From the NCBI GenBank assembly GCA_965649295.1, contig CBFGKH010000002.1, positions 192,001 through 256,000 on the forward strand: 64,000 nt of DNA, given 5' to 3'. The notes beneath the pieces were generated by a model. That model was not told where the DNA came from, made no database searches, and worked only from the letters and a program-made list of their open reading frames with translations. The translations under genes and the position numbers were made by a program. Below, one piece after another: positions 2,851-34,926 of the stretch (its first letter is position 1; each line of letters begins with the position of its first letter). The stretch is from a candidate division WOR-3 bacterium. Lineage in GTDB: Bacteria > Hydrothermota > Tepidihabitantia > Tepidihabitantales > Tepidihabitantaceae.

Positions 2851-4773
2851 CTAGTGGGTCAGAATCAGTTTGGCCTCGGTCTGCTTACCGGCGGAGTTAG
2901 CACGGCAGAAGTAGATGCCAGGCGAGACCAACTGGCCGTGGTCGTCTCGGCCATCCCAGATTGCTGTTCCGGGTTCGAGCTGGCGAATCTGGCGACCGAT
3001 TGCATCACAGATGGTGAAGCCGGTGGGATTAGTAGTTGCAAGCCTGACGGTCTGACCGATGCGGCCAGGATTGGGCCAAGCCTGAATCCGGGCCCGCTGC
3101 GGCTGAGCCGGTATTTCGGCAATCCAGGTGAGCGGATCGTCGGTCACGTATTTGATTGCCCGGCCCGGAGCAAGACGGGCTGCGCCACGATGGTAGGTTC
3201 CGTCAAAGAGGCACTGGATGGCAATCGTGGCGGTCGGGTCCTGGATGCCGACTGTGGCTGAGCCGTAGCCGTTGGTGGTCAGGTATTGGGCGATGAGGAC
3301 GTTGTCGCCGGTAGTAGTGTGGACCGTGGTGTCGTAGATGATGAGCTGGAAGGTCTCCCAGGTGGTGCGCGATGCATAGGTGGGGATGCTGTCGTATTCG
3401 ATAATCAGCCGGTGGTTTTCCGGTTCATGGCGATACCAGATACCGCGGCCTTCAGGCGGATAGAGGTCGTCCCAGTTGAGACAGACCATTGGTGGCATAC
3501 CGGCTGCCGGTAGTGCGGCATTGGTGTAGGTGGCGATGCTGGTACTGCCCGGAGCGACAAAACCGTTGCTGCAGATTGAGAACTGGGTGTAGGTCTGACC
3601 GTAGTAACGCCAGACAAAGCCGGCTGGCAATGGGAAAGTCAGGGTCTGGTCGTCGCCCAAGATGACCTGGGTGCTTGGCATGCCGGCAATCTCAACCCAA
3701 CTGAACTGGGGATGGTTGGGATAGAGCGTGTCACATTCGTCGTAGGCCCAGTAGCGGGGCGGCTGGCGCGGGCCGTCAGGAATCGGGTCCTGAGCGCGGA
3801 TTTCGCCAACCACGACGCGCAGCGTGATGGTATCGTTCCAGGTGCCGGAGATGAGGAGCTGAAGCTCGGCGCTGTGCTCCAGCGGGCAGTTCGGCGCCGC
3901 GGCTAGGCGGAAGGGGGTCGCGGCGTTGTTGCGGGTTGAATCGGGCAGGATGGCAGGATAGGTACAGGTCGAGTCGAGTACGCTGACAAACGGGTCACTC
4001 GTGCGCAGCCGAGCATTGACGACTGTTGCCGGCTGGGTGCCGACATTGCGCAGGCCGATAATATAGCTGGCAGTCTCGCCCGGGTCGAGCTTGCGGTCGT
4101 TGTTGCCGCCGGGCGGCGGGTCGTAGATTGTTCGCTCGCTACAGACGAGATACGGGCCGCTAGCAGTTGAGACTAGGGAGATGTCGTCGGCGAAGACCTT
4201 CGCCGTCGGCGTCCCTCAGCCGGAGTAGGTGTAGCTGTAGAGCGCTACCTCAATCTGGGCGATGTCGCCGGGATTGACGCCCGGCAGGTTCTGGCTGACC
4301 TCGTCAACGACGTTGAGGGTGTAGCGCTGCCAGGCCGGATTGGTGATGCGGTAGAGACTGAGGGTTGGGCTCGGCACCCAGTTGGCATAGGTGGAATAGT
4401 AGTACCGGGTCTCGCCGAGCAGGTTTGAGGCTAGGTCGTAGTAGCAGACGCTGAAACAGGCTGCCGGCCAGCAGGTCGAGACCCCGCCGCTTTCGGCAAA
4501 ACTGGCCCAGAACTCAAGCTGAACAAGCGGACCAGGAACCATTACGGTTTGGCCCAGGCGTGCCCAGCCCGGGTTGTCGTATTGTCGGGTCATCGCCTCG
4601 TAGTCTGGGTCAGGGTGATAGGTGGTCGAGCGGTCGGCTGAGGGCGTGCCAGTGCCGCCGTAGGTGAATGTCCAACCGACCGTCAGCGGTTGTTCAAAGT
4701 CGCCATTGGTCAGCAGATTCTGACCGCCGGCAACCGCCAATAGTAGCGGTAGGAGTAGAATAGTCTTCTGCAA
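2851..4773 (-). CDS. Secreted protein, about 640 aa if the in-frame UGA at 4216-4218 (codon 186) is recoded: signal peptide, CBM4/9-like jelly-roll, Ig-like domain, further beta domain, FlgD/T9SS-like tail
   Basis: ORFs 4216..4773 and 2851..3813 are in the same frame; the 134 codons between them are open and protein-like (GTPTAKVFADDISL...GNNDRKLDPGET...LRNVG); SD AGGAGG before TTG; tail IWDGRDDHG..VSPGIYFCR..KLILTH. Confidence 0.85.
4188..4205 (-). promoter_or_regulatory. Candidate bacterial SECIS hairpin
   Basis: mRNA UGA-GGGACGCCGA-CGGCGAA-GGUC-UUCGCCG: 7-bp stem with GGUC loop starting 10 nt after the UGA. Confidence 0.65.
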
Positions 4774-4797
4774 GGTGCCTCCTTTTTGGCTGAGTAG

Positions 4798-4826
4798 ATT
4801 CTCGCCTGAATCGGCAATCTAGTCAA
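4798..4826 (-). promoter_or_regulatory. Sigma70-type promoter
   Basis: TTGACT-N17-GAGAAT upstream of the AGGAGG SD of the 4773 gene. Confidence 0.6.
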
Positions 4827-4860
4827 GCATCCGAGTGCGACGGGCTTTGGCTGGCCTCCG

Positions 4861-13640: not shown

Positions 13641-16600
13641 TTAGTGTTCAATAACGAGCTTGCGGGTAATGGTGTTACTACCGGATTCAAGTTGCAGTAG
13701 ATAGACGCCGGACGGCAGCGAACCGAGCGCTAGGTCCCAGTGTCCAGCCGACAGCGCCGAAGCCGGTAGGGAACGGCTGAGTACGCAGCGGCCGAGAGCA
13801 TCGTAGATGGACAGTGTGGTTGAGTTGCCCAGTCGTTCAGTGGCCAAGCGGATGAGGCCAGAGCGGAGAGGATTGGGGCCGCGGATTGAAGATTGAGAAT
13901 CGGAGGTAGCTACCGTGTTCGCGCCACTGCGGCTGGGGCGAAGAGAGTAGGCCATAGGCCAGTCAACCCAGCGCCAGCATTCGAGGGTTTTGTTGCCCTT
14001 GAGCGCAAAGAGGATGCCAGCAGCGTAGCTCGTGATGTCCGCTCCAGACTTCACCTTCTTTTTTCGTTGCGTGTAACCCCATTGTGGTAGCGTGTCGAGT
14101 TCCTGCCAGGAGTCGTGCTGGGGCAGGTAGCGGTAGTACTCTTGGGTGTTGCCGCCCTTGAGAGCATAGATGCAACCGTTAGACCAGGCTGCGCAGCCGC
14201 CATCATTAGACTTCCTGGTTCGGTTGAAGTAGCGGGAGACAAAAGGCATTCCGTGCAGCACGTCGGCGCTCCACGACCGGGTTGGAACATCGTAGCGGTA
14301 GAGTTTGTGGTATTTGGCTTGGTGAGCATAGAGGACGCCCGAGCCATCGCTGACCAAAAATGAGCCCTTGTCGTACTTCGGGCTGGCATCGGCCGGGGCT
14401 GGCCTTTCGGTCTCCCAACGCAGTGTCGTCGTGTTGAAGCGGTAGAACTCGTTTCTGTAGCCTTTGAGCAGATAGACGTAGCCGGTGTCGTGGTGCACGA
14501 CATAGGCAAGGTCGGTGCCGCCCTTGACAGGATGGGTACCGGCCGGGACCGGCTCGAGTTCGTGCCAGGAGTCCTGAACGATATCGTAGCGGTAGAACTC
14601 AAGGGTCTTATTGCCCTTGACCGTGTAGATGTATCGATCGCCGTCGGCTATGCCCGACGCACCTTTGCCGACGGCTCGATTGATGGGGCCGGCGGGAATG
14701 CTCGCTTTGGCGAGCCAGGTGTTGGCAATCGGGTCGAAGGCGTAGAAGTCGCGGGTCTTGTTACCGCGGCTAGCGTAGATTCTCTGATTGGGACTAGTGT
14801 AGGCGAGCCAGCCACCGTCCTGTATCAAGCGTGCTTGGCTGCCGGGCGGTATCGCGGCAACTTCGTGCCAGCCGCCTGGCCAGTTTGGGCCAGCGACGAC
14901 TGTGAATTGTCGGCTGATGGTGTCGTTGGCCGGATTCTGGTCACCAGCCAGCACTAGTGAGCAGCGACCGACATAACTGCCGGTGTCGTGGGGATGCGGC
15001 CACTCGGCGAAGGTGAGAGTTGTGCTAGCACCCGGGCCAAGGTTGGCCACTGATTGCAAACTCGTATAGACCTCGCTGCCGTGGCGCAGGATGCAAAAGA
15101 CCGCATTGAAGCTGGCAGGTAGGTCACCTTCATTGCTTACAATTGCCTGTGGGATGACTCTAACACCAGTATCAATTGTGCCAACTGGAGCGATGATGCT
15201 CGTGACACCGACGTCGAGCCTACCCGCGGCCGTAACGCGGCAGTTGGTGTTAGCCGTGTCGTTGGCCGGCAGCAGGTCATCGGCTGAAACTGTCCAGGCT
15301 ACTACCGAGTAATCGCCAACTGGTGTTGCCAGCCATTCAGGTGGAAGCTCGACATCAGCCAGTCCGCCAAGCGGCACGGTCAAGCCGGTCAGTTCGCGGC
15401 TGGCCACGATTGTGCCGCCGGTGTCGAGAATGGCAAGCCCGAGGCTGCCGACAATAGCAGTGTTACCATAGTTGGCAATATCAACCCGGGGCGTGACCAG
15501 CGTGCTCTCAACGAGAGTGCCATTGGGAATGTCAATACTGGCCACGCCGATGTCGCGCACGGCGACGAATACCGAGCCACTGAGGGTGTCGTTGGCTGGG
15601 ACCATGTCACCGGCGAGGGTGGTGATAAGCTGCAGGGCGTGAGTGCCGCGCTGCGGCTGCCAGGTTGGGCTGCAATCAATGGTGGCAGCAAGGCCTGGGC
15701 CCAGTCCGCTCACGGTCGCGGTGCCGATGTAACCGGTGCCAATCGTCAGTTGGGAAGTGAAGCTAGCGGCGGTGTTGCCATTGTTACGGACTCTGACCCG
15801 AGGCGTAATTGGGCCAGAGGAGTCAATGGCCGCACCGGGAACCTCAATCGCCAGTGGCTGAACATCGCGCAGGCGGACAAACACCGACTCGCGGTGCCAA
15901 TACCGGCCTTCTGGTCCGGCAAAGCCGGTTGCTGGTTCGTATTTGATGTCCTGAATGCGGTCATTGGCCCAACTGCGGAAAAGGATTGGCTGATGTCCGC
16001 TAGCCTTGGGCCTGACCACCAGCCAGTAGTCGAAGGTTGTGCCAACTGCCAGCCGGTTGCCCCAGGTGTAGCCGCCCTGCCATTCGAGAATCCGATACTG
16101 GCCGTTCGTTCGGGTCGTGACCTGGCCGATGCCGGTGCCAGTAGTCTGCCAGTCAACAATGCTAAAGCGAGTCGTGTCACAGGCCACGGTCAGGCCATAG
16201 CGCCAGGGTGAGAAGCCGGCTGTGCAACTGAGCCGCAGCCGGAGCGTCTCAGGCTGCAGCAGATTGACCGAGTCAGGCCAGTTGCGGCGCTGGCTCAGCA
16301 GGCTGATTGGCCCAAGCTCATAGTCCGGATAGTTGACATAGATAGCGTTGGTCAGCAGCTCAGGGTCGTTGACGCTGTTCTCAAGGTAGGCGCGGACAAA
16401 GTCGGTGCTGGTGGCGTTGTAGGTGACAGTCCATTCGTAGGCGTAGTCGTAGGACCCGAACGGATTCCAGAACCAGTGGTTGTGAACCGTGCCGGTCTTG
16501 TTGTAAACCCAGAAGTCGTCCAAGTAGTCGGCGTCCTCGATCTCAGCCCGGAACTTGATGGTCTTGGTGCCGGTAACGCGGATGTGCTGGCCCATTACCA

Positions 16601-17681: not shown

Positions 17682-17751
17682 CTGAGCCTCCCAGCTTCTA
17701 TTCCACAGGCTGTGGTCTAGCAAGGCCGATACTTCAGCCTTGAGCCGGCCA

Positions 17752-17782
17752 ATTATACTTCGGCCGCCTATCCTGCTGTCAA
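17752..17782 (-). promoter_or_regulatory. Possible sigma70 promoter
   Basis: TTGACA-N19-TATAAT: consensus hexamers, long spacer. Confidence 0.45.
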
Positions 17783-20800: not shown

Positions 20801-22091
20801 GGCTAGCCAGGACCAGGGTGTCAATCACGCAGACCGGCCGGTTGCCATTGGTGTCGAGGGTGACAAAGTGGGCGTCGTCCTGGCCGATGGCCCAGGGGCT
20901 ATTAGTGTAACCGGCAATGGCATAACGGATGGTATCGCGGACAATGGCAAAGGCCTTCTCGTCCTGGGCCCCGGGCTGACTGGGATGAACCCGCGACCAG
21001 ACCGGGTTGCCGTTGACTGGTTCAACCTTCAGCGCCAGCATGTTGAAGTTCGGCACCCCTGGCCCGGCGCCGTTGGTCCAGCCGGCAACGGTGTAGCCCC
21101 GGAGCGAATCAACGACAAGACAGCGCTCGCCCATCGCTTTCTCTTCAGACAGGTCCCAGCCATAGACCCTTGCCCAGCTCGTGACGCCAGCCGGCGAAAG
21201 TTTCCAGAGCAGAATGTTGTCGCTGAGCGAGCCACCCGCGCCCCAGTTACCGCTCCAGCCGGCAACGATGATGTCCTTGCCGTCATACGCCACTGACCAA
21301 GCCTCGGTACTGGAAGCAGCGCTGGTGATTACTGGCTGATTGGCAGCCGGCCAGACCAGATTGCCGTTCAGAGCATCAACCTTCATCACAAAGGCGTTGG
21401 TCGTGCCGAGACCGCTGAACGGCTTGAACCGGCCGCAGACCACATAGGACGGATTGAGTGGACTTGGCACCTCGCAGATGCTCAGGCCTTCGGTCCAGTC
21501 GCTGCCCAGCAGATAGTTCCTTGCCCAGATCGGTGTACCAGTTCCGTTCAGCTTCAGCACCACTGCCTGGCGTATACCGCCTAGCTCGGAGTAGCCGGTA
21601 ACCGCATAACCACCGTCAGCAGTCGGGATCACCGCCATCGCCTTGTCATCACCGCCGCGGCCAAAAGTCTGGCCCCACATCAGGTTGCCGTCAGCCGCGA
21701 GCTTGACCACAAAGATATCGGCGCTGGGCGGGTTGAGGTTGCGGGTCCAGCCAGCGATAACGCAGCCGCCGTCAGCAGTCGCGGCGACCGATTGAACAAC
21801 GTCGGCAAAGTTACCCGGCGGTATTGGCCCGGTTGTTCGCGCCCAGGAGACAGCGCCGTTCGGCTTCACCTTGAAGACGAGTAGGTTAGTGTCAGCCGGG
21901 CCGCCAGTCGCCATGGTCGTGTAACCGGCCACAAACCAGCCCGAATCAGCAGCAGCGGCAATACTCAGCGCGCGCTCGCTGAGCTGGGTGCCATAGCAGC
22001 CGCACGGCAGCGGCACCGCAGTAGCAGCAGCCGGCAGCAAGAAACTAAGAAAGACAAGAAGGAGAAGGTGCTGAAGGCAGAAGCGGCTCAT
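17844..22091 (-). CDS. Large secreted protein: N-terminal beta-propeller, five CARDB-like domains, Kelch-like propeller, T9SS-like tail
   Basis: SD GGAGG; signal peptide; 'TADGG..AG.T' and 'K....G...W' blades; 'PACSV.N.G' repeats; PAGVYLVRL...TRKLVIEH. Confidence 0.88.
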   Translation of the reverse strand: MSRFCLQHLLLLVFLSFLLPAAATAVPLPCGCYGTQLSERALSIAAAADSGWFVAGYTTMATGGPADTNLLVFKVKPNGAVSWARTTGPIPPGNFADVVQSVAATADGGCVIAGWTRNLNPPSADIFVVKLAADGNLMWGQTFGRGGDDKAMAVIPTADGGYAVTGYSELGGIRQAVVLKLNGTGTPIWARNYLLGSDWTEGLSICEVPSPLNPSYVVCGRFKPFSGLGTTNAFVMKVDALNGNLVWPAANQPVITSAASSTEAWSVAYDGKDIIVAGWSGNWGAGGSLSDNILLWKLSPAGVTSWARVYGWDLSEEKAMGERCLVVDSLRGYTVAGWTNGAGPGVPNFNMLALKVEPVNGNPVWSRVHPSQPGAQDEKAFAIVRDTIRYAIAGYTNSPWAIGQDDAHFVTLDTNGNRPVCVIDTLVLASLNIGAGFSVITSVIETYAMSVMTVADFGVSRVDICPEIRDGGSWRIFAPTDTIDSTQTVAPACSVHNHGNFPIDIPVTISIGATMPPFYVATETVFGLAPGTGARVTFPAYSDWPRGRHLVIATTTLDGDTNLLNNVALDSVFVRVRDVSVEDIVAPTDTIDSTQLVAPVVTVGNQGNVPETFGVTFDLANYNATQTVSALPGERLTISFGAFDGWQRGDWTATASAIIPNDVRPDDNTLTQPVMVRVRDVGATALVAPADGAVIDSGTVITPACSVANFGNVPASFWARLRIGAYRESLWVSDLGPGDRIEVGPFPDWTATTVGVTPLEARTIYSPDLVPNDSVTGHCVVRRPGGHDVGCSFIVRPTGTVDSGAVITPACSVRNYGSFTESYFVVMDIGGPLIYRESVWVSNHPAGVTWEVTFPNWVASPTGVIVVSCSTRLAGDNTPEDDRQVTEVRVLYPRPDVGCTRVLVPAGHIPLGRVIAPVCSLYNYGNTTESYRALVRIGTVYDCSVDVVNHAPGSYQQVVFPTWAAGPAGLHSVVGITLLGTDTRRSNDTARTWLAVRAPAPAGWVELNPVPLDNSNKPVGDGGWLVYNRNHDRFFAAKGNKTEDFYCFDPVGGGWTLRNPYERGREDRPPAKGSGATTDGDNYIYTAKGNNTSKFYRYSISGDSWLELESIPLGVRRRKLKGGTAMAYVDYGGQQSVYLAKGSGTLEFYRYDITADTWQELPGIPVGRGPKIEYGSWLVFDGTMSLYLHKARYHELWRFDLATGRWDTSRMLTGMPLTNRYGRTRKSKEGGCATYYAGDIYSLKGANSQDFFRYRISRDSWTELESLPSYSPVTRKRRLVKGGAGIAARADGIIYALKGNKTREFWRYTPTTDLYSGRPQADGVTQHGPLADEWRLIIAPNPLRSGILNITAGLPGRTATISLFDPLGRRVLIRQLVGTGSGPMALDLRQLPAGVYLVRLESSNNVLTRKLVIEH

Positions 22092-22357
22092 ACAAACCTC
22101 CGGAGAGCTAGAGCTTGGCAGCCAGTCCCGCAGTCGCGCTGCGGGCAACGACGCAACTAAAGTCTAACTTGCCCGCTGGGAGTGTCAATCAGCCCAACCG
22201 CGGCCCGACGACATCACTATACAAACAGACGGTGTTCGAGCAGAAGTCGCTTCCCGGCGTGGTAACGCGTTGGGTTCTGCTGGTGGTCATGCACCTTCGC
22301 TGTCCTTGATGCAGAAGACTGTTGCTGCTATATTCGGGGAAATCGGCCCCAACGGCG

Positions 22358-22532: not shown

Positions 22533-23741
22533 GTGAGTACGACATTCACGTGGCTATCTTTCTCTGAGAAGGAACGACGGCGGGCACTTGATATCATTAG
22601 TCAGTTCAGAGAGCAGGAAACGCGCGATGAGTTGGGGATAGGGTCGGTCCGCGATGCCTATGCAGAGATACTCTTCCCCGGCACCGGAACCGTGCAGACC
22701 CGAGCCAAGTACTTTCTGTTCATTCCGTGGATCTACTTGGCGCTGGAGCGCAAGCAGGTGAAGGGCGTTGATTTTGAATCTCGGGCACGGAGGGCAGAGA
22801 TTGCTCTGATTGAGAGTCTCAGAAAGTCCGGCGACCGGGCCGGTCTCATCGGCGTCGATGCGAGGGCATCGCTGAAGCGCCTACCCAGCGAGATTTACTG
22901 GAGCGGGTTACGGACATGGGGCATCAGGCTTTTCCCGGGCGCGCGGTATCAGTACTTCCGGTACATCGACCGTTTCTATGAGCACCAGCGATGTGGTCAA
23001 GCTGACGGCGACGACCAAGAGAGCGGCAGCGCTGTTCGAGGGAACTGGCACAGCGGCCTGCCGGAACCTGACCCTGGTTTTCCGACAAATGCGGAATTCG
23101 CCCTCTCGCGTGACCAGGCCGTCTACCTCAAGGAGCAGGTGATGTTGAGGGCACCAAACTCCATGCTGGCCTTTCTTGTCGACAGGGGTAAGCCGGTTGG
23201 TGAGGAGGTGAGGTTTCCTTGGGAGCACCCTCAATATGCCGAGATGGGTGACGTCATACAAAGTGAACTTGGGCACGCCCGGCGCTTCTCAGACGCTATG
23301 TACGGAGCCACCATGCTCTATAACCTGATGCTTGCGGAGAAGCGAAGAGAAGGCGAGTGGCGGGAGTCTTACCGTGAAGAACTGGATGGTTGGCGCGACG
23401 ACATCAGCAAGAGGCGGCGCGAGTTCAGGGCGTGGGATATGACCGCATTATGGCACATCGCTGGCAAGAGTGGGATCGTGATTCCGCGACTTGCCAAACT
23501 GTTCACCGAGAGCTGGGTTACCCTTGCCATCCAGAGCGGTCTGTCGGAAACGAACTGGGAGCAGCGTGCACGGCAGATGGTCCATGATCGTGAGCGGCAA
23601 GTGAAGGGGGCGGCCGCTCGGCTTGACGACTCGCGAAAGCTGGAAAGATGGTCAGGTGCTTCGGCGGCCTTCCGAATCAACTACCGCTGGCCACAGGCCA
23701 GGAGAATCACAAACGACATCTTGGCGGGGCTCGGAAGATGA
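22533..23741 (+). CDS. DUF6361-like protein; first gene of a three-gene defence operon (Azaca-like)
   Basis: N-terminal 'WL.FS..ERRRALD...ETRDELGIG.VRDAYA..LFPGT.TVQTRAKYFLFIPW', 'PS.IYWSGL..WGI'. Confidence 0.8.
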   Translation: MSTTFTWLSFSEKERRRALDIISQFREQETRDELGIGSVRDAYAEILFPGTGTVQTRAKYFLFIPWIYLALERKQVKGVDFESRARRAEIALIESLRKSGDRAGLIGVDARASLKRLPSEIYWSGLRTWGIRLFPGARYQYFRYIDRFYEHQRCGQADGDDQESGSAVRGNWHSGLPEPDPGFPTNAEFALSRDQAVYLKEQVMLRAPNSMLAFLVDRGKPVGEEVRFPWEHPQYAEMGDVIQSELGHARRFSDAMYGATMLYNLMLAEKRREGEWRESYREELDGWRDDISKRRREFRAWDMTALWHIAGKSGIVIPRLAKLFTESWVTLAIQSGLSETNWEQRARQMVHDRERQVKGAAARLDDSRKLERWSGASAAFRINYRWPQARRITNDILAGLGR

Positions 23742-25597
23742 ACAGTCTGCTTGCTCCACAGGACCGAACCGGTCTGTTGGAAATGCTGCGGCCGCCCGAT
23801 GGTTACCACATCACCGACGCCATCGGCGCCACCTATTCGCTTGACCTTGCCACCTTGCTTTCGATCCCGGTGGCAATGACATTTCCGTACTGGGAAGATG
23901 ACAGTCATAGCTCAGAGACTTCCTCCTTAGTGGTCTTACAATCACTGCGGCGCCAGGCGGACCGGATTACGGTGTTTTGCCAGGCAGGGGGCATCAAGTT
24001 GCCCACACGCAACAAACTCCTGTTGAGCTACCTCGAGAAATCGGTATACGATGTCACCGCGAGGAGCCGTTTCGGAGTCTTCCACCCAAAAGTATGGGTA
24101 ATCCGGTTCGAAGGGCAGAAGAAGAGCATACGCTATCGGCTGCTCTGTCTTACCAGGAATCTCACGTTTGACCAGTCGTGGGACACGGCGCTGGCGATGG
24201 ACGGCGAACTCACTGGCCGCAGCAAGCCCTACGCGAAAAACCACGGCATATGCGACCTCCTAGGTGCTCTACCAACCCTTGCTCTCGCCCGACCCGTGCC
24301 GCGGGAGCGGGTGTCGGCTATCAGGCGTATTGTGCACGAGCTCCGAGTCGTCGATTTCGAGGTACCGGACGGCTTCGATGATTACGTTACCTGGTCGTCC
24401 GGAATCGGACGGCGCAGTTCGTGGCCATTTGAACGCTGGTGCGACCGCTTCCTAGTAGTGTCGCCATTCCTGTCGGACGTGGTTCTTCGTCGTCTTGTCA
24501 AGAACAGCAGCGAACGGCGGTCATTACTGATTTCGCAGCCTGCCGCCATCGATTCGCTGCCTTCCAGCACCAGGGCGGCGTTCAAGAAGACCTTCGTTCT
24601 CAATCCAGCGGCTGAACTCGATGGCGCGGCAATGGTTGAGTCTGAAGAAGATATTGCCCAAGCCGGCGGTCTCCACGCCAAGCTGTACCTGCAGGAGAAA
24701 GGCTGGTATGCCACAGTCTGGACCGGCTCAGCCAATGCAACCGATGCCGCGTTCGAACAAAACGTTGAGTTCATGGTGGGGCTGAAGGGAATGCGTAGCC
24801 GAGTTGGGATAGACGTTCTCTTGGCCAAGGACAAGAACCAAACCAGTCTGTTCGATATGCTGGAGGAATATTCACCCGAAAGCGACAATCAGCCAGCGGG
24901 TGATGTGCAAGCGCGGCTCGACAGAGCGGCCGCTGACGCCGCACGCTCGCTGGCTGAATCCCGACCGGAGTGCAGGGTCAGCCGCAGGCAGAGAGGGTGC
25001 TTCACGATGCAAGTCAGAACAACGAGGGGCAGGTGGCATCCGTCCGACTCCATTTGTGCCGTCTGCTGGCCGGTCAGTCTACAGGAATCGTCGGCCGTCA
25101 CCCTAGACAGAACTGGCTCCGCTACGTTTGAGAACGTGACGATAGAGGCACTCACTTCGTTCTTTGCCTTTGACGTAACCTTCTCTGAGGGCCCACGCCG
25201 TTCGCTCCATCGCCGGTTTGTCCTGAACCTGCCGCTGGTCGGTGTGCCGGCAGAAAGAGAGGATGTTGTTCTGCGAACGCTCTTATCCTCTCACGGCCAC
25301 GTGCTGCGGTTCCTGTTGCTGCTCCTGGGCAATGACGAAGTAGGTGGTCCTGACCATCACACGGGCTGGTCGTGGTCCCAAGACCCGTGCGGCGTTCGAT
25401 CGGAATCCGTAGTTACTGAGCCAACGTTGTTTGAGTTGCTGGTACGCACGCTGGTGCGAGACCGTGACCGTCTCAAGGAAGTCGCTCGCCTGGTTGATGA
25501 CCTGCGTCGGACTGATGAAGGAACCAAGTTACTACCACCGGGCTTTGACAGCATTTGGGATCCGGTCTGGGAAGCGTATCAGAGGACCCGCCGATGA
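23738..25597 (+). CDS. Phospholipase D-superfamily (nuclease-like) protein
   Basis: Two HxK motifs (FHPKVW...TRNLT; LHAKLY...GSANAT...NVE); ATGA overlaps on both sides. Confidence 0.85.
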   Translation: MNSLLAPQDRTGLLEMLRPPDGYHITDAIGATYSLDLATLLSIPVAMTFPYWEDDSHSSETSSLVVLQSLRRQADRITVFCQAGGIKLPTRNKLLLSYLEKSVYDVTARSRFGVFHPKVWVIRFEGQKKSIRYRLLCLTRNLTFDQSWDTALAMDGELTGRSKPYAKNHGICDLLGALPTLALARPVPRERVSAIRRIVHELRVVDFEVPDGFDDYVTWSSGIGRRSSWPFERWCDRFLVVSPFLSDVVLRRLVKNSSERRSLLISQPAAIDSLPSSTRAAFKKTFVLNPAAELDGAAMVESEEDIAQAGGLHAKLYLQEKGWYATVWTGSANATDAAFEQNVEFMVGLKGMRSRVGIDVLLAKDKNQTSLFDMLEEYSPESDNQPAGDVQARLDRAAADAARSLAESRPECRVSRRQRGCFTMQVRTTRGRWHPSDSICAVCWPVSLQESSAVTLDRTGSATFENVTIEALTSFFAFDVTFSEGPRRSLHRRFVLNLPLVGVPAEREDVVLRTLLSSHGHVLRFLLLLLGNDEVGGPDHHTGWSWSQDPCGVRSESVVTEPTLFELLVRTLVRDRDRLKEVARLVDDLRRTDEGTKLLPPGFDSIWDPVWEAYQRTRR

Positions 25598-28500
25598 AAC
25601 GACACTCAGGGCTGGTGGACGTCGAGAAGGTCTTGTCCGTGCTCAAACGCTTTCAGCGCGACACCGTGGACTACGTCTTCGGTCGGATGTATCTTGACAA
25701 CGACAAGACACGGCGGTTTCTGGTAGCCGATGAGGTCGGCCTCGGGAAGACACTCGTGGCACGCGGAGTCATCGCGCGCGTGATAGAGCATCTGGACAAA
25801 GAAGGACTTCCGCGGATAGACATAGTCTATATCTGCTCTAATGCCGATATCGCCCGTCAGAACATCGCGCGACTGAACGTAACCGGCAAGGATGACTTTG
25901 AGTTCACCTCGCGAATCACGATGCTGCCCGATGTCCTGCGCGACCTGAATGCTAACCGCGTTAATCTGGTGTCATTTACCCCGAGTACGTCATTTGACTT
26001 GGAGTCCGGCACCGGCCGAGCCGAGGAGCGAGCACTAATGTGCCGGTTGCTGGGTGGCGCATTCGACCTGCCGAGAACCGGTCTGATGAACGTCCTGCAG
26101 GTGAAAAAGGAGACCGGCGACTTCCGCTGGCTGGTTCGTAAGTACGAAGGCTGCGATTTGAGTAAGGAGATTTCTGATAGCTTCCCCCGCGCCGTAAAAC
26201 GGGCTTCCGACATTCTCCCGCAGCTACGTGAGCTCTGTCGAGCATTTCGCCGGACACGTAAGAACATCCCTCCTGATGAGCGGAACGCGTGCAGGATGAT
26301 AGTTGGCAAGTTGCGTGCGCTGCTGGCAGCTACGTGTCGTGAAGTGCTGAAACCCGCCCTCATTATTCTCGACGAATTCCAGCGGTTCAGGTACCTCCTT
26401 GAAGGTACCAGTGAAGCAGGACTGCTCGCCCGTGAGATGTTCGAGTATTCCAAGGGAGAAACCCAAGCACGGGTTCTACTTCTCTCGGCGACTCCGTACA
26501 AGATGTACACGATCGACGGAGTTGATGACGAGGATCACTACAAGGATTTTCAGCACACGCTCCAATTCCTGGCAGAGGGTTGCGAAGATGCCCCCGACTT
26601 CGAGTTGCTGCTGCGAGAATACCGCAGCGAACTACTAAGGCTGAACCATCCCAGAGGGCGATTCCAGGAGGCCAAAGAGCGACTGGAGAAGGCCCTGCGT
26701 AAGGTGATGGTGCGAACCGAGCGGCTGGCCGTGACTCCGGACCGCAGCGGAATGCTCAACTTCTCGACTGAGCTGCCAGTTCGCCTGCGGGCCTCCGATC
26801 TCTCAGCGTACGTCGCCACACAACGGCTGGCCACAGAACTTCGTTGCGGAGACGTACTGGAACTGTGGAAATCGACACCCTATATGCTGAATTTCATGGA
26901 GGGGTACAAGCTGAAGCAGCTTCTGCGGGAGCGCGTCGAAAAGAACGGAGGCGGGGCAGCGATCGTCCGGGCAATCGAAGGGTTACCCGACTTGCTGGCG
27001 CGTGCTGATATCGAGCGCTACCGGGCAATCGACCCTGGCAACGCCCGGCTTCGGGCGCTGGTGGAAGACATCCTTGACAAGGGACTTTGGAAACTGCTCT
27101 GGGTTCCGCCTGCCCTTCCTTATTACGACTTAGGCGGTCCGTTCTCCGACGAGGCGGCCCAGCGGTTCACAAAGAGGCTTGTATTCTCCACTTGGCGGCT
27201 GGTGCCACGGGTCATCTCGGCCGTGCTCAGCTACGAAGCTGAGCGACGAATGGTCACCTCCTTTTTCCCCCGTGCCGTCAATCCGCAAGGTGAGAGAAGA
27301 CGTCGTCCGCCCCTGCTCAGATTCAGCAAGACCGATGGCAGGTTGACCGGCATGCCAGTCCTTGGCCTGGTCTACCCATGTTTCACTTTGGTGCGCGAGT
27401 GTGATCCACTGCAGTTCTTTATCGAACGAGGCCAACGGCCTTCTCTCCAGCTGCTGATGCACGAAATGGAGCACAGAATCCAGCGGATGTTGGGCAGACT
27501 GAGGGTGCGTAATGTCGAAGATGGTCGCGAAGATGAGACTTGGTACTGGCTTACGCCCTTGCTGCTCGACTACGAGCACAACCCGCGGGCATTCTCGTCC
27601 TGGTTCGATCGCGACGACCTGGCACAACGCTGGAGTCGCGGTCTCACCGACGAGGTGTCAGCATATTGGGAAGATCACGTGAACGAGGCACGTCGCCGTG
27701 TTGACGAGTACCGGGCGGGAAAGCAGGTGCTCGGGCGCCGCCCAGCGGACTTGGCAGAGGTCTTGGCACAGTCGGGGATTGCCGGGTTCGGCACCGTCGT
27801 CCTGCGGGCACTGTGCCGCGTTGCCGGCAGTAGAAGGGCCGCTACTAATGTACTGGTTCGCGACGCGAGCGCAGCGCCGGCGCACTCATTTCTCTCCCTT
27901 TTTAACGCGCAGGACGCCATGCCGATGATCAGAGGGTTGACCAAGAGAGGAAACGCCAAGGGCCAGCCCTACTGGCGACTTGTCATTAAGTATGCCCTTG
28001 AAGGGGGACTGCAAGCGGTGATGGACGAGTACGTTCACTTACTGCATGATTCGCCCGAGTATGTCGACCACGCCCCTGAAAGAGCTGTCGCGGCTGTAGC
28101 TGAAGCAGTGCAAACCGCGATGGCGCTTAGGCCAGCACAGCCAGGTATAGACTGGGTCAGCGTCACCCCCCGCAGCCGTAAGGTCAGAATCGAGGGCGGG
28201 AGACTACGGAACAGGTTCGCAGTGCGGTTCGGCGACGATGAGGCGGATCTGGCACGCGAAGGCGTGCGTGCCGAACAGATTCGCAAGGCCTTCAATTCGC
28301 CGTTCTGGCCATTTGTGCTGGCAACGACTTCGGTCGGCCAGGAAGGCCTTGACTTTCATTGCTATTGCCATGCGGTGGTGCACTGGAACCTGCCAGCTAA
28401 CCCTGTTGACCTGGAGCAACGCGAGGGACGCGTACACCGCTACAAAGGACTCGCGGTTCGCCGCAACCTGGCGGTCCGCTACGGGTCCGGCAGGTTGCTG

Positions 28501-28812
28501 GCGGGCGGAGCCGATCCGTGGGCCACGATGTTCCAACTTGCGGTACGCGACCAACCGCCGGGGCGCGGCGACATTTGGCCCTATTGGGTTTGTACCTGCG
28601 AGAAAGGGGTAATGATTGAGCGCCACGTGCCAATGCTACCACTAAGTCGAGAATCCGATCGGCTAAGCTGGCTCCAACGCTCGCTGGCCGCCTATCGCAT
28701 GGTCTTTGGTCAGGCCCGCCAAGAGGACCTGCTGCAGTACCTCATGGCGAGCGGAGCGGCTGACAACGTTGCAGACTTGACAATGGACCTGAGTCCACCG
28801 GGTCAACGCTAG
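25594..28812 (+). CDS. SF2 helicase
   Basis: ADEVGLGKT, LDEFQ, LLSATPY, FNSPFWPFVLATTSVGQEGLDFH, DLEQREGRVHRY. Confidence 0.92.
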   Translation: MKRHSGLVDVEKVLSVLKRFQRDTVDYVFGRMYLDNDKTRRFLVADEVGLGKTLVARGVIARVIEHLDKEGLPRIDIVYICSNADIARQNIARLNVTGKDDFEFTSRITMLPDVLRDLNANRVNLVSFTPSTSFDLESGTGRAEERALMCRLLGGAFDLPRTGLMNVLQVKKETGDFRWLVRKYEGCDLSKEISDSFPRAVKRASDILPQLRELCRAFRRTRKNIPPDERNACRMIVGKLRALLAATCREVLKPALIILDEFQRFRYLLEGTSEAGLLAREMFEYSKGETQARVLLLSATPYKMYTIDGVDDEDHYKDFQHTLQFLAEGCEDAPDFELLLREYRSELLRLNHPRGRFQEAKERLEKALRKVMVRTERLAVTPDRSGMLNFSTELPVRLRASDLSAYVATQRLATELRCGDVLELWKSTPYMLNFMEGYKLKQLLRERVEKNGGGAAIVRAIEGLPDLLARADIERYRAIDPGNARLRALVEDILDKGLWKLLWVPPALPYYDLGGPFSDEAAQRFTKRLVFSTWRLVPRVISAVLSYEAERRMVTSFFPRAVNPQGERRRRPPLLRFSKTDGRLTGMPVLGLVYPCFTLVRECDPLQFFIERGQRPSLQLLMHEMEHRIQRMLGRLRVRNVEDGREDETWYWLTPLLLDYEHNPRAFSSWFDRDDLAQRWSRGLTDEVSAYWEDHVNEARRRVDEYRAGKQVLGRRPADLAEVLAQSGIAGFGTVVLRALCRVAGSRRAATNVLVRDASAAPAHSFLSLFNAQDAMPMIRGLTKRGNAKGQPYWRLVIKYALEGGLQAVMDEYVHLLHDSPEYVDHAPERAVAAVAEAVQTAMALRPAQPGIDWVSVTPRSRKVRIEGGRLRNRFAVRFGDDEADLAREGVRAEQIRKAFNSPFWPFVLATTSVGQEGLDFHCYCHAVVHWNLPANPVDLEQREGRVHRYKGLAVRRNLAVRYGSGRLLAGGADPWATMFQLAVRDQPPGRGDIWPYWVCTCEKGVMIERHVPMLPLSRESDRLSWLQRSLAAYRMVFGQARQEDLLQYLMASGAADNVADLTMDLSPPGQR

Positions 28813-28813
28813 C

Positions 28814-28981
28814 ATGCTGTCTCGCCCTTTTGAGTACACTCGCGTGGAGCTGCCGTTCATCGAGTAGCTCAAGGGCATGGGCTGGCAGCACGTGGAGGGC
28901 GATACCTAAGTTCCGGGCCTGAGTCCCAGCGGCAAGGAGAGCTTCCGCGAGGTGTTGCTGGTTGACCGGCTGTTTGGCTAA
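28814..28981 (+). pseudogene. hsdR: Decayed 5' fragment of type I restriction endonuclease R subunit
   Basis: MLSRPFEYTRVELPFIE*LKGMGWQHVEGDT*VPGLSPSGKESFREVLLVDRLFG*, HsdR-like N-terminus with stops at 28865 (TAG) and 28907 (TAA). Confidence 0.7.
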
Positions 28982-29011
28982 AGCCTGACCGGCTGGCAAC
29001 GAGGCCGGCGG

Positions 29012-30820
29012 TTATGCTGGCTGAGCTTGGGATTCGAGGACTTCGGCGCAGGGAACGCCGTCAACGAGGCTGACCCGCACTGCGGTTGCTGTTTCCCATT
29101 CGGGTTTTGTCCGCAGCCGGGCTAGGGCAGTGCCGACGACTTGGTCAAAGGCTCGGTTGAGCGGCCGGGCACCGTATTCCGGGTCAAACCCCTGTTTGCG
29201 AATGAGCTTGCGGACAGCGTCGTCGAGGACGATGCGGCGGCGGGTCAGTTCGCCAAGGCGCAGTAGCTTCTGGTCAATGAAGCGGGTCATCATCTCGCTG
29301 GTGAGCGGTCGGAAGACAAGGACGCCGTCAAGCCGGCCGAGAAACTCGGCCGGAAACTTCAGTTTGGTGGCGGTGAGAAACTGGCGCACGGCCTCGCTGG
29401 TCGGCTCGGGCCCGAAGCCGCGGACTCGGGTCCATTGTTCGCGCTTGTCGAAGCCGACGTTGCAGGTCATCAGCACGATGTAGGACCCAAGGTGAAGGAC
29501 GTTGCCCTGCAGGTCGGTCATCCGGCCATAGTCGAACGCCTGCAGAAATGCTGTCCAGACCTCTTCGTCGGCCTTCTCGAACTCGTCGAGCAGCAGCACG
29601 CCATAGGGATGGCTGCGCAGTCCGAGGGTGAGCGGCGGCAGGTATTCTGGACTTTCCGGGCTGGGGGTTCCGGGTCGGCCGAGGAGCGAATAGAGCTGTT
29701 TGTGGACCGACATGTCAATGCGAATCAGGTGTTCTTCGCTGCCCATATAGACGCTGGCCAGAGCCTTGGCCAGTTCGGTCTTGCCGACGCCGCTCGGCCC
29801 GGTGCACATAAAGACGGCGAGTGGCCGTTCGGGGTTCAGTTGTACCCGGTTGCGCGTGACCTGCAGCCGGCGGCAGATGGCGGCGATGGCCTCTTCCTGG
29901 CCGAGCACGCGCCGGTTGAGCTCGGCTTCGAGGGCGTCGGCGTGTTCGTCACCGGTGACCCGGCCGGCGTCCGGGATGCCGGTCAGCTCGGCCACGGCCG
30001 TGCGCAGCTCCTGTTCGCCGACGGTCGGCTGCCCGGTTGTGCCGGCCAAGACAAACGCGCCTTCGAGCAGGTCAACGGCCTTGTCCGGCTGGCAGCGAAA
30101 CGGCAGGTATTCGTCGGCCAGTCGTATCGCGGTGCGGGCGAGTTGGGGACGGGCCGTGATGCCAAAGTGGCGTTCGAGCACCCGACATTCGGCCTCAACA
30201 ATCCGTTCGAGCACCGGGCCTTCAGGCGGCAGGATATAGACCGGCTGAAAACGGCGCACCAGCGCGTCCTCGCGGCCGAGCAGGCGGTGAAACTCGGCTG
30301 TGGTCGTTGCGCCGATAATCTTCAGTCGGCCGTCGGCGAGATAGGGCTTGATGACGTTGGAGCTGATTTCAAACCAGCGGATGGTATGGAACTCGTCGAA
30401 GAATAGTACGACCGGAGTCTGGACCGCCTCTTTGAGCAGCCGGGAGAGAAGCCGCATGTAGCTGTTGAACTCCCAGGTGCTGCTATCGGCTGCGCCGTGA
30501 ATCTGCTGAAAGCTGGTGCGGATTACTTTTCGACCCTGCAGCCACTTGGGCACCTGGTTCTGGACAATGCGCCAGGCAAGACAGCGGACAAGAGACGACT
30601 TGCCGACACCGGCGTCGCCAAGAATGACCGGGTTGGCCTTGGTGCGGCGGCCAAGAATCCGTATCAACTGGTCCAGCGCTTCCTCGCGGCCAACCACATC
30701 GTCGGCAGTCAGGTCCTTCACCGCCACCGTCAAGTCCTCGCCGCACTTGTAGAAGACCGAATCATCGGGCAAAGGCTGGGTGGGAAAGAAGGCATCGGCG
30801 AATAGCTCACCGGTAACCAT
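29012..30820 (-). CDS. ClpA/B/C-family double AAA+ ATPase lacking the N-terminal Clp-repeat domain
   Basis: VVGRE..RRTKANPVILGDAGVGKS, FFDEFH, IGATT, RRFQ, PDKAVDL, LGQEEAI, GPSGVGKTELAK, LLDEFEKA, YGARPL. Confidence 0.9.
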   Translation of the reverse strand: MVTGELFADAFFPTQPLPDDSVFYKCGEDLTVAVKDLTADDVVGREEALDQLIRILGRRTKANPVILGDAGVGKSSLVRCLAWRIVQNQVPKWLQGRKVIRTSFQQIHGAADSSTWEFNSYMRLLSRLLKEAVQTPVVLFFDEFHTIRWFEISSNVIKPYLADGRLKIIGATTTAEFHRLLGREDALVRRFQPVYILPPEGPVLERIVEAECRVLERHFGITARPQLARTAIRLADEYLPFRCQPDKAVDLLEGAFVLAGTTGQPTVGEQELRTAVAELTGIPDAGRVTGDEHADALEAELNRRVLGQEEAIAAICRRLQVTRNRVQLNPERPLAVFMCTGPSGVGKTELAKALASVYMGSEEHLIRIDMSVHKQLYSLLGRPGTPSPESPEYLPPLTLGLRSHPYGVLLLDEFEKADEEVWTAFLQAFDYGRMTDLQGNVLHLGSYIVLMTCNVGFDKREQWTRVRGFGPEPTSEAVRQFLTATKLKFPAEFLGRLDGVLVFRPLTSEMMTRFIDQKLLRLGELTRRRIVLDDAVRKLIRKQGFDPEYGARPLNRAFDQVVGTALARLRTKPEWETATAVRVSLVDGVPCAEVLESQAQPA

Positions 30821-31312
30821 CGTCTGCTCCCTTCTGGCGAGCGGCCGGCAGGAGTGGCCGGAAAGCGCTGATGCTGGCATCGGAACCGACTGCGGCCTTG
30901 ACAATAGCAGTAGCCCGGGCCGCTAATAGGCTGGTGACTTTTGGTCTTTGGTGGTCGCGACTACGGTCTGAGCCGTCACCCTGAAAGGGGACAACCTCGC
31001 GGGCAAAGTCCGGTCGTGCGCCCCGTGTTGTAGCCCCAGAAAGGCCAGAATCGGTGAGAATATCCGTGCTCTCCACTGCCGTCTCCAATCTAGCGCGAAG
31101 TTCAGGGCAGGATAGCAACCGTATAGCCAAGGTCAAGAAAATAATGCCCGAAGTCCCATCTTCATCAACTGCACCCGACCACGAAGGCGAAAGTTAACAT
31201 ACCGGCTACCTCCAGAAGTATAAAGTTAGTACCACTGCCAAAGACGGGCCGGAATGGTGTAAAGGATTGTATCTTGGAGCCTTAGACCGAATCGGCCAAA
31301 CTACCCTAGGGC

Positions 31313-32547: not shown

Positions 32548-32709
32548 CGGCGAGATTGTCGGCAGGCGTAGATGACTGTCAACCCCGAGGCGGGCAACGA
32601 TGGGCATTGTGCCGGCGGTGGCTTCTTGACTCGCTTGCACCAGCAATCTACGATTGTGCAGCCGGAGAGGTCATTCCGAACATGAGCTGCTGATAAGGAG
32701 CGTGATGAT

Positions 32710-34926
32710 ATGAGCCGAGCAAGCGTAGTCTTCTGTCTGCTGGCGCTGGCAGCGGTGGCCTGGGCAGACTGGACGAGCATCGGGCCAGAAGGCGGGCCAA
32801 TCTACAGCGGCGTGGCGACAGCGACGAGTCCGCCAACTGTTTATGCTGCGCCGACCGGTTACAACCGGCCGCTATACCGAACCCGCAACGGTGGTGTAAA
32901 CTGGACACCTACTGCCAGTGCGCCGGTGTATGGGCCGACAGTGATGGCCGCTCATCCGACCGATACCAACCGGCTCTATGGCATCTACAGTTCGCTCTTT
33001 TTCCGGACAACTGACGCGGGCGCAACCTGGACCCAGACATCGCTGGGAACAAACACGGTCGGGTACGATATCGCGGTCAATCCGCAGAATCCGCAGGTTA
33101 TTTACTCAGTCGGCTATCGCTACGACGGTTCGGCCTGGCGGCTGACGAGTATCAAGACGACTGATGGCGGCGCAACCTGGACCCCGACTCAGCTCGATAC
33201 GGCGAGGACTGCTTATGGCTATGCCTGTGCAATTGACCCGGTTGATACCAATGTTGTCTATGCGGGCGGCTATGCCGATACCATGACCGCGTTCTACAAG
33301 TCCACTGACTGCGGTGCTACTTGGACGAAGATTGCCTGGCCCCGGAATGACTATTATCTATACTCGATTGCGGTCAGTCCGGTTGACCACAACATCGTTT
33401 TTGCCGGAACGCTGTATGGCATCTACCGCTCGACTGACGCTGGCCTGACCTGGACCCGGCAGAGCACGAGCATCTATAACTACCGCATTGTCTTTGCGCC
33501 CGACAACCCGAACGTGATGTACTCGGCCGCCTACAGTGGTGTTTATCGTTCGACTGATGGCGGCCGCACCTGGACCATCTCGACTGCCGGCATCCAAGGC
33601 TCGAACCTGCGTTTTGTCGTGACGGTGCCGGGCCAAGCTGGCGTTGTTTTCTGCGGCACGACTGCAGGGATGCACAAGTCAACTGACTATGGCCAGACCT
33701 GGACACCGGTCAACAGCGGCGTCTTGGTCGGTTCTATCCCGGCGATTGCCTTTGACCCGAGCGCTCCCGGCACCGCTTTTGCCGAGTTCATTGACAACGC
33801 CATCTTCAAGACGACCGACGACGGCGTCACCTGGGAGCGGCAGCCGACCGTGCTTTCCTGTGGCAATGTCTGTAGTATCATCATCGAGCCTGCGAACCCA
33901 CAACGACGCTGGATGTTCGAAGCTTCGGGCTGAGGGACCGCTGAGCTCTTCCGGAGCACAGACGGCGGGTCCGTCTGGACAGTAATCGAAAGCTGGATGA
34001 ATGATGGCGGAGCGATGGCAGTCTCTTTGCTCAACCCGAACTATGTCTTCTGTACCGGCAACATCTATGTGTCTGGGCAGTGGTGCATTGCGGTCTCGCA
34101 TTCAAGTGACGGTGGTACGACTTGGGAACATGATACGATTCCTGGGGGCAGCAACGGCTTTGCCGTGGCCTTTGATGCGGTTGACCCGAACCTGGTCTAT
34201 GTCGGCGGCGACAGCGCCTACAGCTACACCTATCCGCAGTTGCTGGTCTCTACTGACCTTGGGGTAACCTGGACGCCGCGGCACGCTGGTCTGAATGGTC
34301 GGGTCTGGGCAATTGCGGCTGATCCGGTTCAGTCCGGTGTTGTCTATTGCGGCACCTACCGCGGTGTGTTCAAGTCCACCAACGCCGGAGCAAGCTGGAC
34401 TGCCACGCCGCTCGCTTACGAAACCCGCGCTCTTGTCGTTGACCCGACTGACCCGGCAAAGCTCTATGCCGGCACCTATGGCAACGGCGTCTATGTCTCA
34501 ACCAATGCCGGTGCGACTTGGACAGCGATGAACACCGGGCTTGGCTGCCTTCGGATACTGTCACTAGGGTTGCGGCCCGGGCCTGGCAGTGTGCTCTATG
34601 CCGGCACGGATGGTGGCGCAGTCTATCGCACCGACATCCTGACCAGCGTCACTGACCAGCCGGCGAGCGAAGTTCGGGCCGCGAGGTTCGAGATTACCCC
34701 CAATCCATGCCGCGACCGTGCCTTTGTTCGTCTCCTCACTCAGGCGCACGATAGTTCAATTACTGCGACTGTCTCCCTCTTTGATGTCACTGGCAAGCGG
34801 GTGCTATCTACCAAAGGCGCTGGGTTCTGGGAACTCGATGTCTCTGCGCTGGCACCCGGTAGCTATTTTGTCTCGCTTGCCGGGCCAGGTCAGCGCCTGA
34901 TAGCGCGGCTAATAGTGACGCGGTAG
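32710..34926 (+). CDS. Secreted BNR/Asp-box (VPS10/Ycf48-like) beta-propeller protein with T9SS-like tail, about 738 aa if the in-frame UGA at 33931-33933 (codon 408) is recoded
   Basis: ORFs 32710..33933 and 33997..34926 are in the same frame; intervening codons GTAELFRSTDGGSVWTVIESW contain an Asp-box; S/T-x-D-x-G-x-T-W repeats on both sides; tail PNPC...LAPGSYFV...RLIVTR. Confidence 0.85.
33959..33977 (+). promoter_or_regulatory. Candidate bacterial SECIS hairpin
   Basis: CAGACGG-CGGGU-CCGUCUG, 7-bp stem with loop 33 nt after the UGA; an alternative longer fold spans 33935-33972. Confidence 0.45.

Follow-up and report, generated by a model that had tools for sequence, protein, structure and literature searches.

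Two genes of a candidate division WOR-3 bacterium, referred to here as genes A and B, very probably encode genuine selenoproteins, in which an in-frame UGA codon is decoded as selenocysteine (Sec, U in motifs) by the known bacterial mechanism. Both genes are located in a 64,000-nucleotide (nt) stretch of contig CBFGKH010000002.1 (positions 192,001 to 256,000, forward strand), hereafter the window, and coordinates given without a prefix are those of the window. Support for this conclusion comes from the conservation of the TGA, covarying hairpins downstream of it, the presence of the Sec machinery and its co-distribution with the gene A family, the continuity of the protein fold across the codon, and the co-variation of cysteine (Cys) with Sec. 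Genes A and B would represent new selenoprotein families, unusual both in location and in fold, and the gene A family (family A) is without a Cys counterpart. The main features are as follows.

2851..4773, minus strand: gene A, a 640-codon read-through frame
4216..4218, minus strand: UGA of gene A (codon at 4218-4216), proposed U186, with 185 codons before and 454 after
32710..34926, plus strand: gene B, a 738-codon read-through frame
33931..33933, plus strand: UGA of gene B, proposed U408, with 407 codons before and 330 after

The in-frame UGA codons and their conservation

The codons at the junction read TCC GGC TGA GGG ACG in gene A, flanked by the residues ...YSYTYSG and GTPTAKVFADD, and TCG GGC TGA GGG ACC in gene B, flanked by ...MFEASG and GTAELFRSTDGG. 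A first-pass annotation of this DNA had claimed that each gene contains a single in-frame TGA in the context S-G-stop-G-T, followed by 454 (A) and 330 (B) sense codons; translation with table 11 bore out the former, and the codon counts were reproduced. The upstream cysteines that it had named (STCWPAAC in A, LSCGNVC in B) are present, as are the C-terminal sorting tails and the downstream stem-loops of both genes, and inspection by eye agreed that in neither gene does a separate signal peptide precede the downstream part.

A genome-wide six-frame scan covered 75,080 TGA triplets, which were filtered for G-TGA-G flanked on either side by 30 or more open codons. Eighty TGAs passed the filter, and long frames on both flanks were found only in genes A (200/454) and B (415/330), the sole pair of this kind. 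The context shared by the two genes, to which the first-pass annotation had attached weight, is indeed identical in A and B, but the exact S-G-U-G-T is confined to close clades; across families A and B only U-G is common, mostly as G-U-G. The nucleotides UGA-GGN-ACN (U-G-T) are common to four unrelated candidate genes of the source genome (window 4213-4215, window 33934-33939, C6:70792, and C6:52281), and this sharing could reflect a decoding context or chance. Contigs of four hot-spring metagenome DNA runs from two studies cover the gene B site in small shares, and none of the differences listed for them falls between 33906 and 34047. The in-frame TGA of genes A and B is neither an error nor a sign of a pseudogene.

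To examine the conservation of the gene A site, the N-terminal 241 residues of the read-through protein were searched against 201 genomes from the phylum. Exactly one TGA was observed in 115 of the 122 best rows, and two TGAs in one more. The TGA-bearing rows extend down to approximately 30% identity, with several paralogs per genome, and come from 56 genomes; in the 30 sites that were fetched, the TGA occupies the same aligned codon. The context of the Sec residue is Y-S-G-U-G-T-P in close relatives of gene A, and S-G-S-U, G-T-U-G-G, N-G-C-U-Q-G-H-C, H-T-C-U-G-A, or Y-H-C-U-A in distant members of the family. In an independent scan of one genome per species, carried out with two N-terminal family A motifs that exclude the Sec site, 70 loci were found, and all 63 loci analysed carried the TGA. 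The records concerned are labelled "bacterium", Stahlbacteria, Cloacimonadota, Latescibacterota, Eisenbacteria, TA06, Thermoanaerobaculales, and a Desulfuromonas bin, and some of these phylum labels may be binning or naming artefacts. For the gene B family (family B), exactly one TGA was found in 53 of 58 rows from the same 201 genomes, and the database orthologs P0125, P0163, P0207, and P0208 stop exactly at the UGA (...EGSG). Homologs in both families, to which the first-pass annotation had pointed as a check, carry the TGA at the same position, and as judged from these alignments the in-frame UGA is conserved at the same codon across orthologs and paralogs. Homologs of genes A and B, which are 30 kb apart in the source genome and approximately 15 kb apart in some f1 genomes, lie only about 2 kb from each other on one contig and are seemingly adjacent in genomes of one family of the class, f7 (G133, G149, G061, G161, and G137), a proximity that may point to a functional link.

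Public gene calls divide these genes at the UGA: 188 clusters of open reading frames (ORFs) of approximately 185 amino acids span the family A domain up to the TGA, the named ones being hypothetical, "CBM-cenC", or "DNRLRE" proteins, and dozens of database ORFs of approximately 450 amino acids begin a few codons past it. This split annotation is what would be expected of two separate genes, or of decaying pseudogenes, in which the TGA is a true stop. We regard that explanation as very unlikely, because the same single TGA recurs across 56 genomes and under several phylum labels, the frames being otherwise free of stops and frameshifts, the gene A domain is completed only by a strand past the TGA, the downstream part has no signal-peptide start (by eye), and synonymous sites past the TGA are constrained into a hairpin.

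Downstream hairpins and the selenocysteine machinery

Three stem-loops were delineated immediately downstream of the UGA codons, including candidates for a selenocysteine insertion sequence (SECIS).

4189..4204, minus strand: gene A hairpin, with a 6-base-pair (bp) stem (GGCGAA/UUCGCC) and a GGUC loop at 4198-4195, starting 11 nt past the UGA
33945..33957, plus strand: gene B hairpin 1, 5 bp, starting 11 nt past the UGA
33959..33977, plus strand: gene B hairpin 2, the SECIS candidate, with a 7-bp stem and a CGGGU loop at 33966-33970, starting 25 nt past the UGA

In an alignment of 30 sites, 99.4% of the cells of the gene A hairpin were paired, the GGUC loop was invariant, and two pairs showed compensatory changes (AU in 16 and GC in 14 sites; AU in 26 and GC in 3). 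As a control, the 3' partner was slid by 1-3 columns, which left only 18-67% pairing. The 63 motif-scan loci added changes in three more stem pairs, including the replacement of the basal G-C by C-G and A-U, and the covariation is visible in the protein as A-K-V-F-A, A-E-V-S-A, and A-R-V-L-A. For gene B, four of the five pairs of hairpin 1 never vary, and the element is invariant even at synonymous sites. Hairpin 2 was paired in 93.9% of cells, with compensatory changes at three positions (GC 22/AU 6; AU 22/GC 2/CG 1; CG 27/UA 1) and pair examples such as GAC/GUC, AGC/GCU, and ACU/AGU, and hairpin 2 rather than hairpin 1 is the candidate for SelB binding. The covariance analysis that the first-pass annotation had called for thus revealed compensatory changes in the hairpins of both genes. 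Taken together, these data indicate that a downstream stem-loop with a G in its apical loop is under structural selection, with SelB as its predicted ligand. In the four hot-spring metagenome runs mentioned above, contigs piled up on 33925-33994 only, the interval of the TGA and both hairpins, and diverged on both sides of it; summed depth there rose 4- to 17-fold in the four runs, which fits nucleotide-level conservation among many genes.

A review (PMC8659212) describes the E. coli SECIS as a stem-loop of 17 nt that is placed 11 nt from the UGA and carries G23 and U24 in its apical loop. As far as that description goes, gene A resembles the E. coli fdhF-type SelB/SECIS system in having an in-frame UGA followed 11 nt downstream by a stem-loop with apical G22 and U23, and tRNA-Sec, SelA, SelB, and SelD are all encoded in the source genome. 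Unlike that system, genes A and B encode predicted exported, non-redox proteins, the gene A hairpin has no bulged U, the candidate hairpin of gene B is placed 25 nt downstream, behind the invariant hairpin, and neither gene matches an Rfam SECIS family.

The source genome (2.28 Mb in 19 contigs, 100% complete; database homologs of the window genes are labelled candidate division WOR-3) was searched for the Sec machinery, and all four components proposed for the check were present. A tRNA-Sec at C5:88305-88399 scored 72.9 bits (gathering score 47), and selA (575.6 bits), a full-length selB (345.3 bits), and two selD genes, each with an in-frame TGA of its own, all scored above the curated cut-offs. 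The selD copies are located at C1:318451-319377 and C1:355394-358244, and one of them directly adjoins selB. The earlier statement that the window itself has no sel genes was correct, the machinery being located elsewhere in the genome.

A lineage-wide change of the code, in which UGA would be read as Gly or Trp (NCBI tables 25 or 4), could also explain open frames across a TGA, and glycine would suit the G-x-G loops. This possibility is extremely unlikely: TGA ends 13 of the 32 window ORFs and 430 of the 1,149 frames of at least 300 codons in the genome, the 32 window ORFs (228-1,434 amino acids) are open under table 11, with 27 of them matching Pfam families, and in-frame TGAs are confined to few genes. 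Among the 47 tRNAs of the source genome, no suppressor tRNA(UCA) other than tRNA-Sec was found. TGA is not reassigned in this genome, which belongs to neither alternative code (tables 4 and 25).

Next to its presence in the source genome, the distribution of SelA follows that of family A. Of the 201 genomes, 67 gave a SelA match; by hand count, these comprise 55 of the 56 in which family A has a TGA-bearing member, and 12 of the 145 others. Twelve SelA-positive genomes are without family A, 133 genomes are without both, and only one of the 134 SelA-negative genomes has a family A member. Whole families (f8, f9, f12, f14, f16, f17, f19, and others) are without both SelA and family A. Because related genomes are non-independent, this co-distribution is to be read as a pattern, not as a statistical test.

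These observations bear on programmed readthrough, which the first-pass annotation had offered as an alternative; a near-cognate tRNA for Trp, Cys, or Arg would then decode the UGA with no involvement of the Sec machinery. Such readthrough would find support in P0004, the only full-length family A protein record, which has W at the site. The candidacy of P0004 as a Trp homolog was rejected, since its sequence through and after the site is that of L038 (G056:C51), where the DNA reads TGA; the W is most likely a translation-table artefact introduced by the source (UGA read as Trp, table-4 style). In addition, the hairpin matches a SECIS in both position and loop, and the genomes that have the family are almost all SelA-positive. 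Given the SECIS-like hairpin and the link with SelA, readthrough of this kind is very unlikely. Records such as P0004 can mislead comparisons of Sec, Cys, and Trp forms.

Folds, predicted secretion and the candidate cysteine partner

The arrangement of domains was examined in both read-through proteins. Gene A encodes, in order, a signal-peptide-like N-terminus, a Sec-bearing beta-sandwich resembling carbohydrate-binding modules (CBMs), a module of approximately 450 amino acids, and a tail resembling type IX secretion system (T9SS) and FlgD-Ig domains. Gene B encodes a signal-peptide-like N-terminus, a BNR/Asp-box propeller of the sortilin-Vps10-like kind, and a T9SS tail.

4159..4722, minus strand: N-terminal beta-sandwich of gene A, residues ~18-205, AlphaFold2 predicted local distance difference test score (pLDDT) 93.3
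2863..3078, minus strand: C-terminal sorting-type domain of gene A, residues 566-637, TIGR04183 17.7 bits against a cut-off of 23
34699..34917, plus strand: T9SS C-terminal sorting domain of gene B, residues 664-736, PF18962 28.7 against 27 and TIGR04183 30.1 against 23

Gene A has no Pfam match, and its ~450-amino-acid module is also found behind M14, S8, and C25 peptidase domains in WOR-3 proteins. Its N-terminal domain was modelled with AlphaFold2 from an alignment of 30 sequences, residue 169 of the modelled fragment being U186. In the model, U186 is located in the loop between the last two strands of the beta-sandwich (156-166 and 173-185, fragment numbering), and the fold resembles CBM11, CBM61, CBM4, and CBM16 (Foldseek E 1e-7 to 1e-8, template modelling (TM) score ~0.5). 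One truncated UniRef homolog is likewise named "CBM-cenC domain-containing protein"; unlike an established CBM, the gene A domain gives only a moderate match (TM ~0.5, 12-18% identity) and has no Pfam family. By its modelled fold, the domain would belong to the beta-sandwich CBM superfamily, outside any sequence profile, a resemblance that does not imply sugar binding. We know of no CBM that contains selenocysteine, and no search was aimed at this point.

The gene B propeller matched PF15902 (134 bits) and NF045728, the F510_1955 glycosylhydrolase family (211.4 bits against a cut-off of 175). The AlphaFold2 model is all-beta with repeated blades and a pLDDT of 92.0 across the UGA, and U408 falls between strands 381-385 and 394-397 of a single blade. 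Both the profile score above the cut-off and the modelled fold point to a propeller of the NF045728 type, a prediction that does not imply enzyme activity.

The search for T9SS components covered SprA and PorU. The SprA translocon is encoded in the source genome (445.8 bits summed against a cut-off of 200), together with two full-length PorU-like genes that fall just short of the cut-off of 420 (369.5 and 340.4 bits). Homologs of gene A carry PF18962/PF13860 tails, and gene A itself is sub-threshold. In C-terminal domain and in machinery, both proteins have the features predicted for type IX secretion cargo, the tail of gene A being sub-threshold. T9SS cargo is abundant in the window as a whole; two giant proteins with Kelch repeats and T9SS tails (1,360 and 1,434 amino acids) are encoded in tandem at 13641-22148, and the first of them also has a CARDB domain.

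The first-pass annotation had proposed that recoding gates the sorting tail, termination giving a short form without the tail and recoding a full-length form that can be sorted. In favour of selection for such a choice, the sorting domain is encoded downstream of the UGA in both genes, and selenium shortage would inevitably truncate the product ahead of the tail. Against it, the folded domain spans the UGA in both A and B, so that the product of termination would be an incomplete domain, without a strand in A and with half a blade missing in B. Moreover, the paralog C11:6188-6877, a stand-alone domain with the motif ...C-S-G-T-S-A-C-U-G..., keeps Sec and the same hairpin, with 26 codons after the UGA and no tail, and the co-variation of Sec with cysteine points to a role in protein chemistry. 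A selenium-dependent secretion switch of this kind is consequently not supported and appears very unlikely.

The cysteines that might partner Sec are the following.

4456..4473, minus strand: Cys101 and Cys106 of gene A (T-C-W-P-A-A-C), Cys101 being the candidate partner of Sec
33859..33873, plus strand: Cys384 and Cys388 of gene B (S-C-G-N-V-C), 24 and 20 residues before Sec

Of 30 family A sequences, 25 have the T-C-W cysteine, and all of the remaining five have Cys directly before Sec; one sequence has both. C-U-G is the dominant motif in the wider set of 63 family A loci, and the non-Sec paralog C3:201482-202177 is without Sec and without the partner cysteines. In family B, all 28 orthologs have the first Cys, at about -24 (offsets -22 to -25), and 25 of the 28 have the second, at about -20; where homologs have no TGA, the Sec loop and the upstream cysteines are missing as well, and in one homolog, P0241, Cys replaces Sec and an upstream Cys is retained. 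This co-variation suggests a Cys-Sec centre in both proteins, which may act in redox chemistry, bind sulfur species or soft metals, or form a cross-link that resists reduction.

A selenoprotein with some of these features is MccSep, a periplasmic multiheme cytochrome c of Geobacter sulfurreducens, in which polysulfide is reduced by a Sec/Cys pair according to bioRxiv 10.1101/2025.11.18.688581. As described there, MccSep shares with A and B a signal peptide, an annotation split into two ORFs at the UGA, a SECIS-like element just downstream, and the combination of Sec and Cys; unlike A and B, it is a periplasmic heme enzyme with demonstrated polysulfide reductase activity and many Cys-type homologs. 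A and B differ from it in having no cofactor motifs, CBM-like or propeller folds, and T9SS tails, and in the absence of a Cys form of family A.

On this evidence, the UGA of A and B would be read as selenocysteine by Sec-tRNA(Sec) delivered by SelB, with selenium being incorporated and SelB being recruited, presumably by binding, to a SECIS hairpin within the coding sequence, 11 nt (A) or 25 nt (B) past the UGA. The full-length proteins would be exported via the N-terminal signal peptide, recognised by eye, and the type IX secretion system would take them over through the C-terminal domain. Sec would then be placed in an exposed loop of a non-redox fold, which is the CBM-like beta-sandwich in the case of A and a blade of the BNR propeller in that of B, where together with the conserved Cys it may form a selenenylsulfide-type centre at the cell surface, either redox-active or binding soft metals or sulfur. 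The claim that Sec recoding occurs in exported proteins of non-redox fold with a nearby Cys was strongly supported by the conserved TGA, the hairpins, the machinery, and the co-distribution.

Several results weigh against decoding as selenocysteine. No Cys-for-Sec form of family A was found: a search of 5.8 billion proteins (352-1,120 amino acids over the domain) gave only P0004, and none of the approximately 180 TGA-bearing sites has a Cys form. Almost all selenoproteins have Cys homologs, on which homology-based predictors rely, according to PMC12013277, and family A is therefore atypical. Rfam scans of both hairpin regions returned no SECIS family, only chance-level matches. Hairpin 2 of gene B is further from the UGA than the gene A hairpin, and its loop varies (CGGGU, CGGCG, and CGGAG). 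A covariance model of the gene A hairpin recognised three paralogs and, weakly, C11, and neither gene B nor selD; it was too specific to its own sequences to be used as a general SECIS model. The genome G157 (approximately 300 contigs) has a TGA-bearing member and no SelA match, and the proximity of Cys to Sec is predicted from topology and co-variation only.

Further candidate genes and what the proposed surface selenoproteins would mean

Further in-frame TGAs were sought in the genome with a six-frame codon-usage filter followed by inspection; an earlier scan of ORF flanks (1,208 matches) was too noisy, and a first codon-bias score was dropped because antisense frames scored as coding. Three more family A members with TGA and hairpin were found, namely C11:6188-6877 on the minus strand, C3:253096 on the minus strand, which lies within a 1,669-codon frame, and C9:82600 on the plus strand. 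In addition, seven further genes with an in-frame TGA have a signal-peptide-like start and, except for the small C7 ORF, a T9SS/FlgD-Ig-type end; by eye, all but the C7 ORF have a hairpin with a G in the loop 14-22 nt downstream.

C6:70561-72030, plus strand: Redoxin/AhpC-TSA-type (thioredoxin-like) protein, W-A-S-T-U-G-T-C, with Pfam Redoxin and FlgD_ig
C3:126546-127301, minus strand: C-G-G-U candidate, in-frame TGA
C4:55328-56761, plus strand: G-C-U candidate, in-frame TGA
C8:60948-61937, plus strand: C-U-G-D-N-C candidate, in-frame TGA
C6:53330-54439 and C6:52038-53225, plus strand: two Omp28-like paralogs, U-x-T-C, in-frame TGA
C7:3187-3501, plus strand: small ORF candidate, in-frame TGA

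The conservation of the TGA was examined for the first two of these. At C6:70561-72030, which shows the pattern typical of selenoproteins and lends support to Sec decoding in this genome, 15 of the 16 best rows retain the TGA, and no stop occupies the site in families lacking Sec; at C3:126546-127301 it was found in three close orthologs, and 15 of 16 weaker matches have no stop, the other having TAA. The C6 gene is a selenoprotein candidate of the thioredoxin-fold UxxC type, with U-G-T-C, a signal peptide, and a FlgD-Ig/T9SS-type tail; it has the UGA-GGG-ACC nucleotides of gene B, and its Sec and Cys forms alternate between lineages. Unlike this type, A and B have neither such a fold nor a CxxU/UxxC motif, and their Cys partner is remote or, in distant family A members, adjacent as C-U. 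Taken together, the further candidates suggest a wider secreted selenoproteome.

Other frames were set aside as Sec candidates. Same-frame neighbours at C3:194000, C3:191171, C6:117908, C9:33717, C2:105079, and C12:19702 were not retained. At C3:188899, C3:191753, and C3:194561, tandem paralogous cassettes consist of a ~190-amino-acid frame ending in ...IPSVSAA-TGA and a same-frame T9SS-tailed protein of approximately 750 amino acids; these were read as gene pairs, the downstream protein having a signal-peptide-like start of its own. Elsewhere in the window, the plus-strand region 22533-28812 encodes a DUF6361 protein (220 bits), an unannotated 649-amino-acid ORF, and a 1,085-amino-acid protein with a helicase C-terminal domain, and an AAA/ClpB-like ATPase is encoded on the opposite strand at 29012-30904; the cluster at 22533-30904 may be a defence-type island.

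A literature search, with subscription journals and supplements outside its range, gave no relevant paper, among those listed, on selenocysteine in WOR-3/Stahlbacteria or on selenoproteins with type IX secretion, and searches within PMC13188914 and PMC12013277 met no relevant mention of WOR-3, BNR, secretion, signal peptides, or extracellular proteins. If the decoding is confirmed, families such as A, without Cys homologs, would be systematically missed by homology-based selenoprotein predictors, and since hundreds of public records split these genes (at least 188 family A clusters), surface proteomes of the WOR-3 type would have been misdescribed. The hairpin of gene A has E. coli-like spacing and loop, which makes Sec insertion testable in a laboratory host.

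More speculatively, and with doubt outweighing confidence, WOR-3 and allied candidate phyla may keep a T9SS-exported selenoproteome whose core is the obligate-Sec CBM-like domain, with a Cys-Sec surface chemistry, often vicinal C-U, and in which the Sec trait is kept largely for surface proteins over cytoplasmic redox enzymes. That chemistry might serve to trap or reduce polysulfide, elemental sulfur, or soft metal(loid)s, or it might provide a reduction-resistant Se-S lock in proteins operating in hot, sulfidic, anoxic water. If the decoding proposed here is true, genes A and B would stand for two large unannotated selenoprotein families, with probably several more in the genome, all placed at the cell surface or outside the cell and different in fold from the usual redox enzymes, and selenium would have found a new use in the Cys-Sec centre of a carbohydrate-binding type of scaffold.

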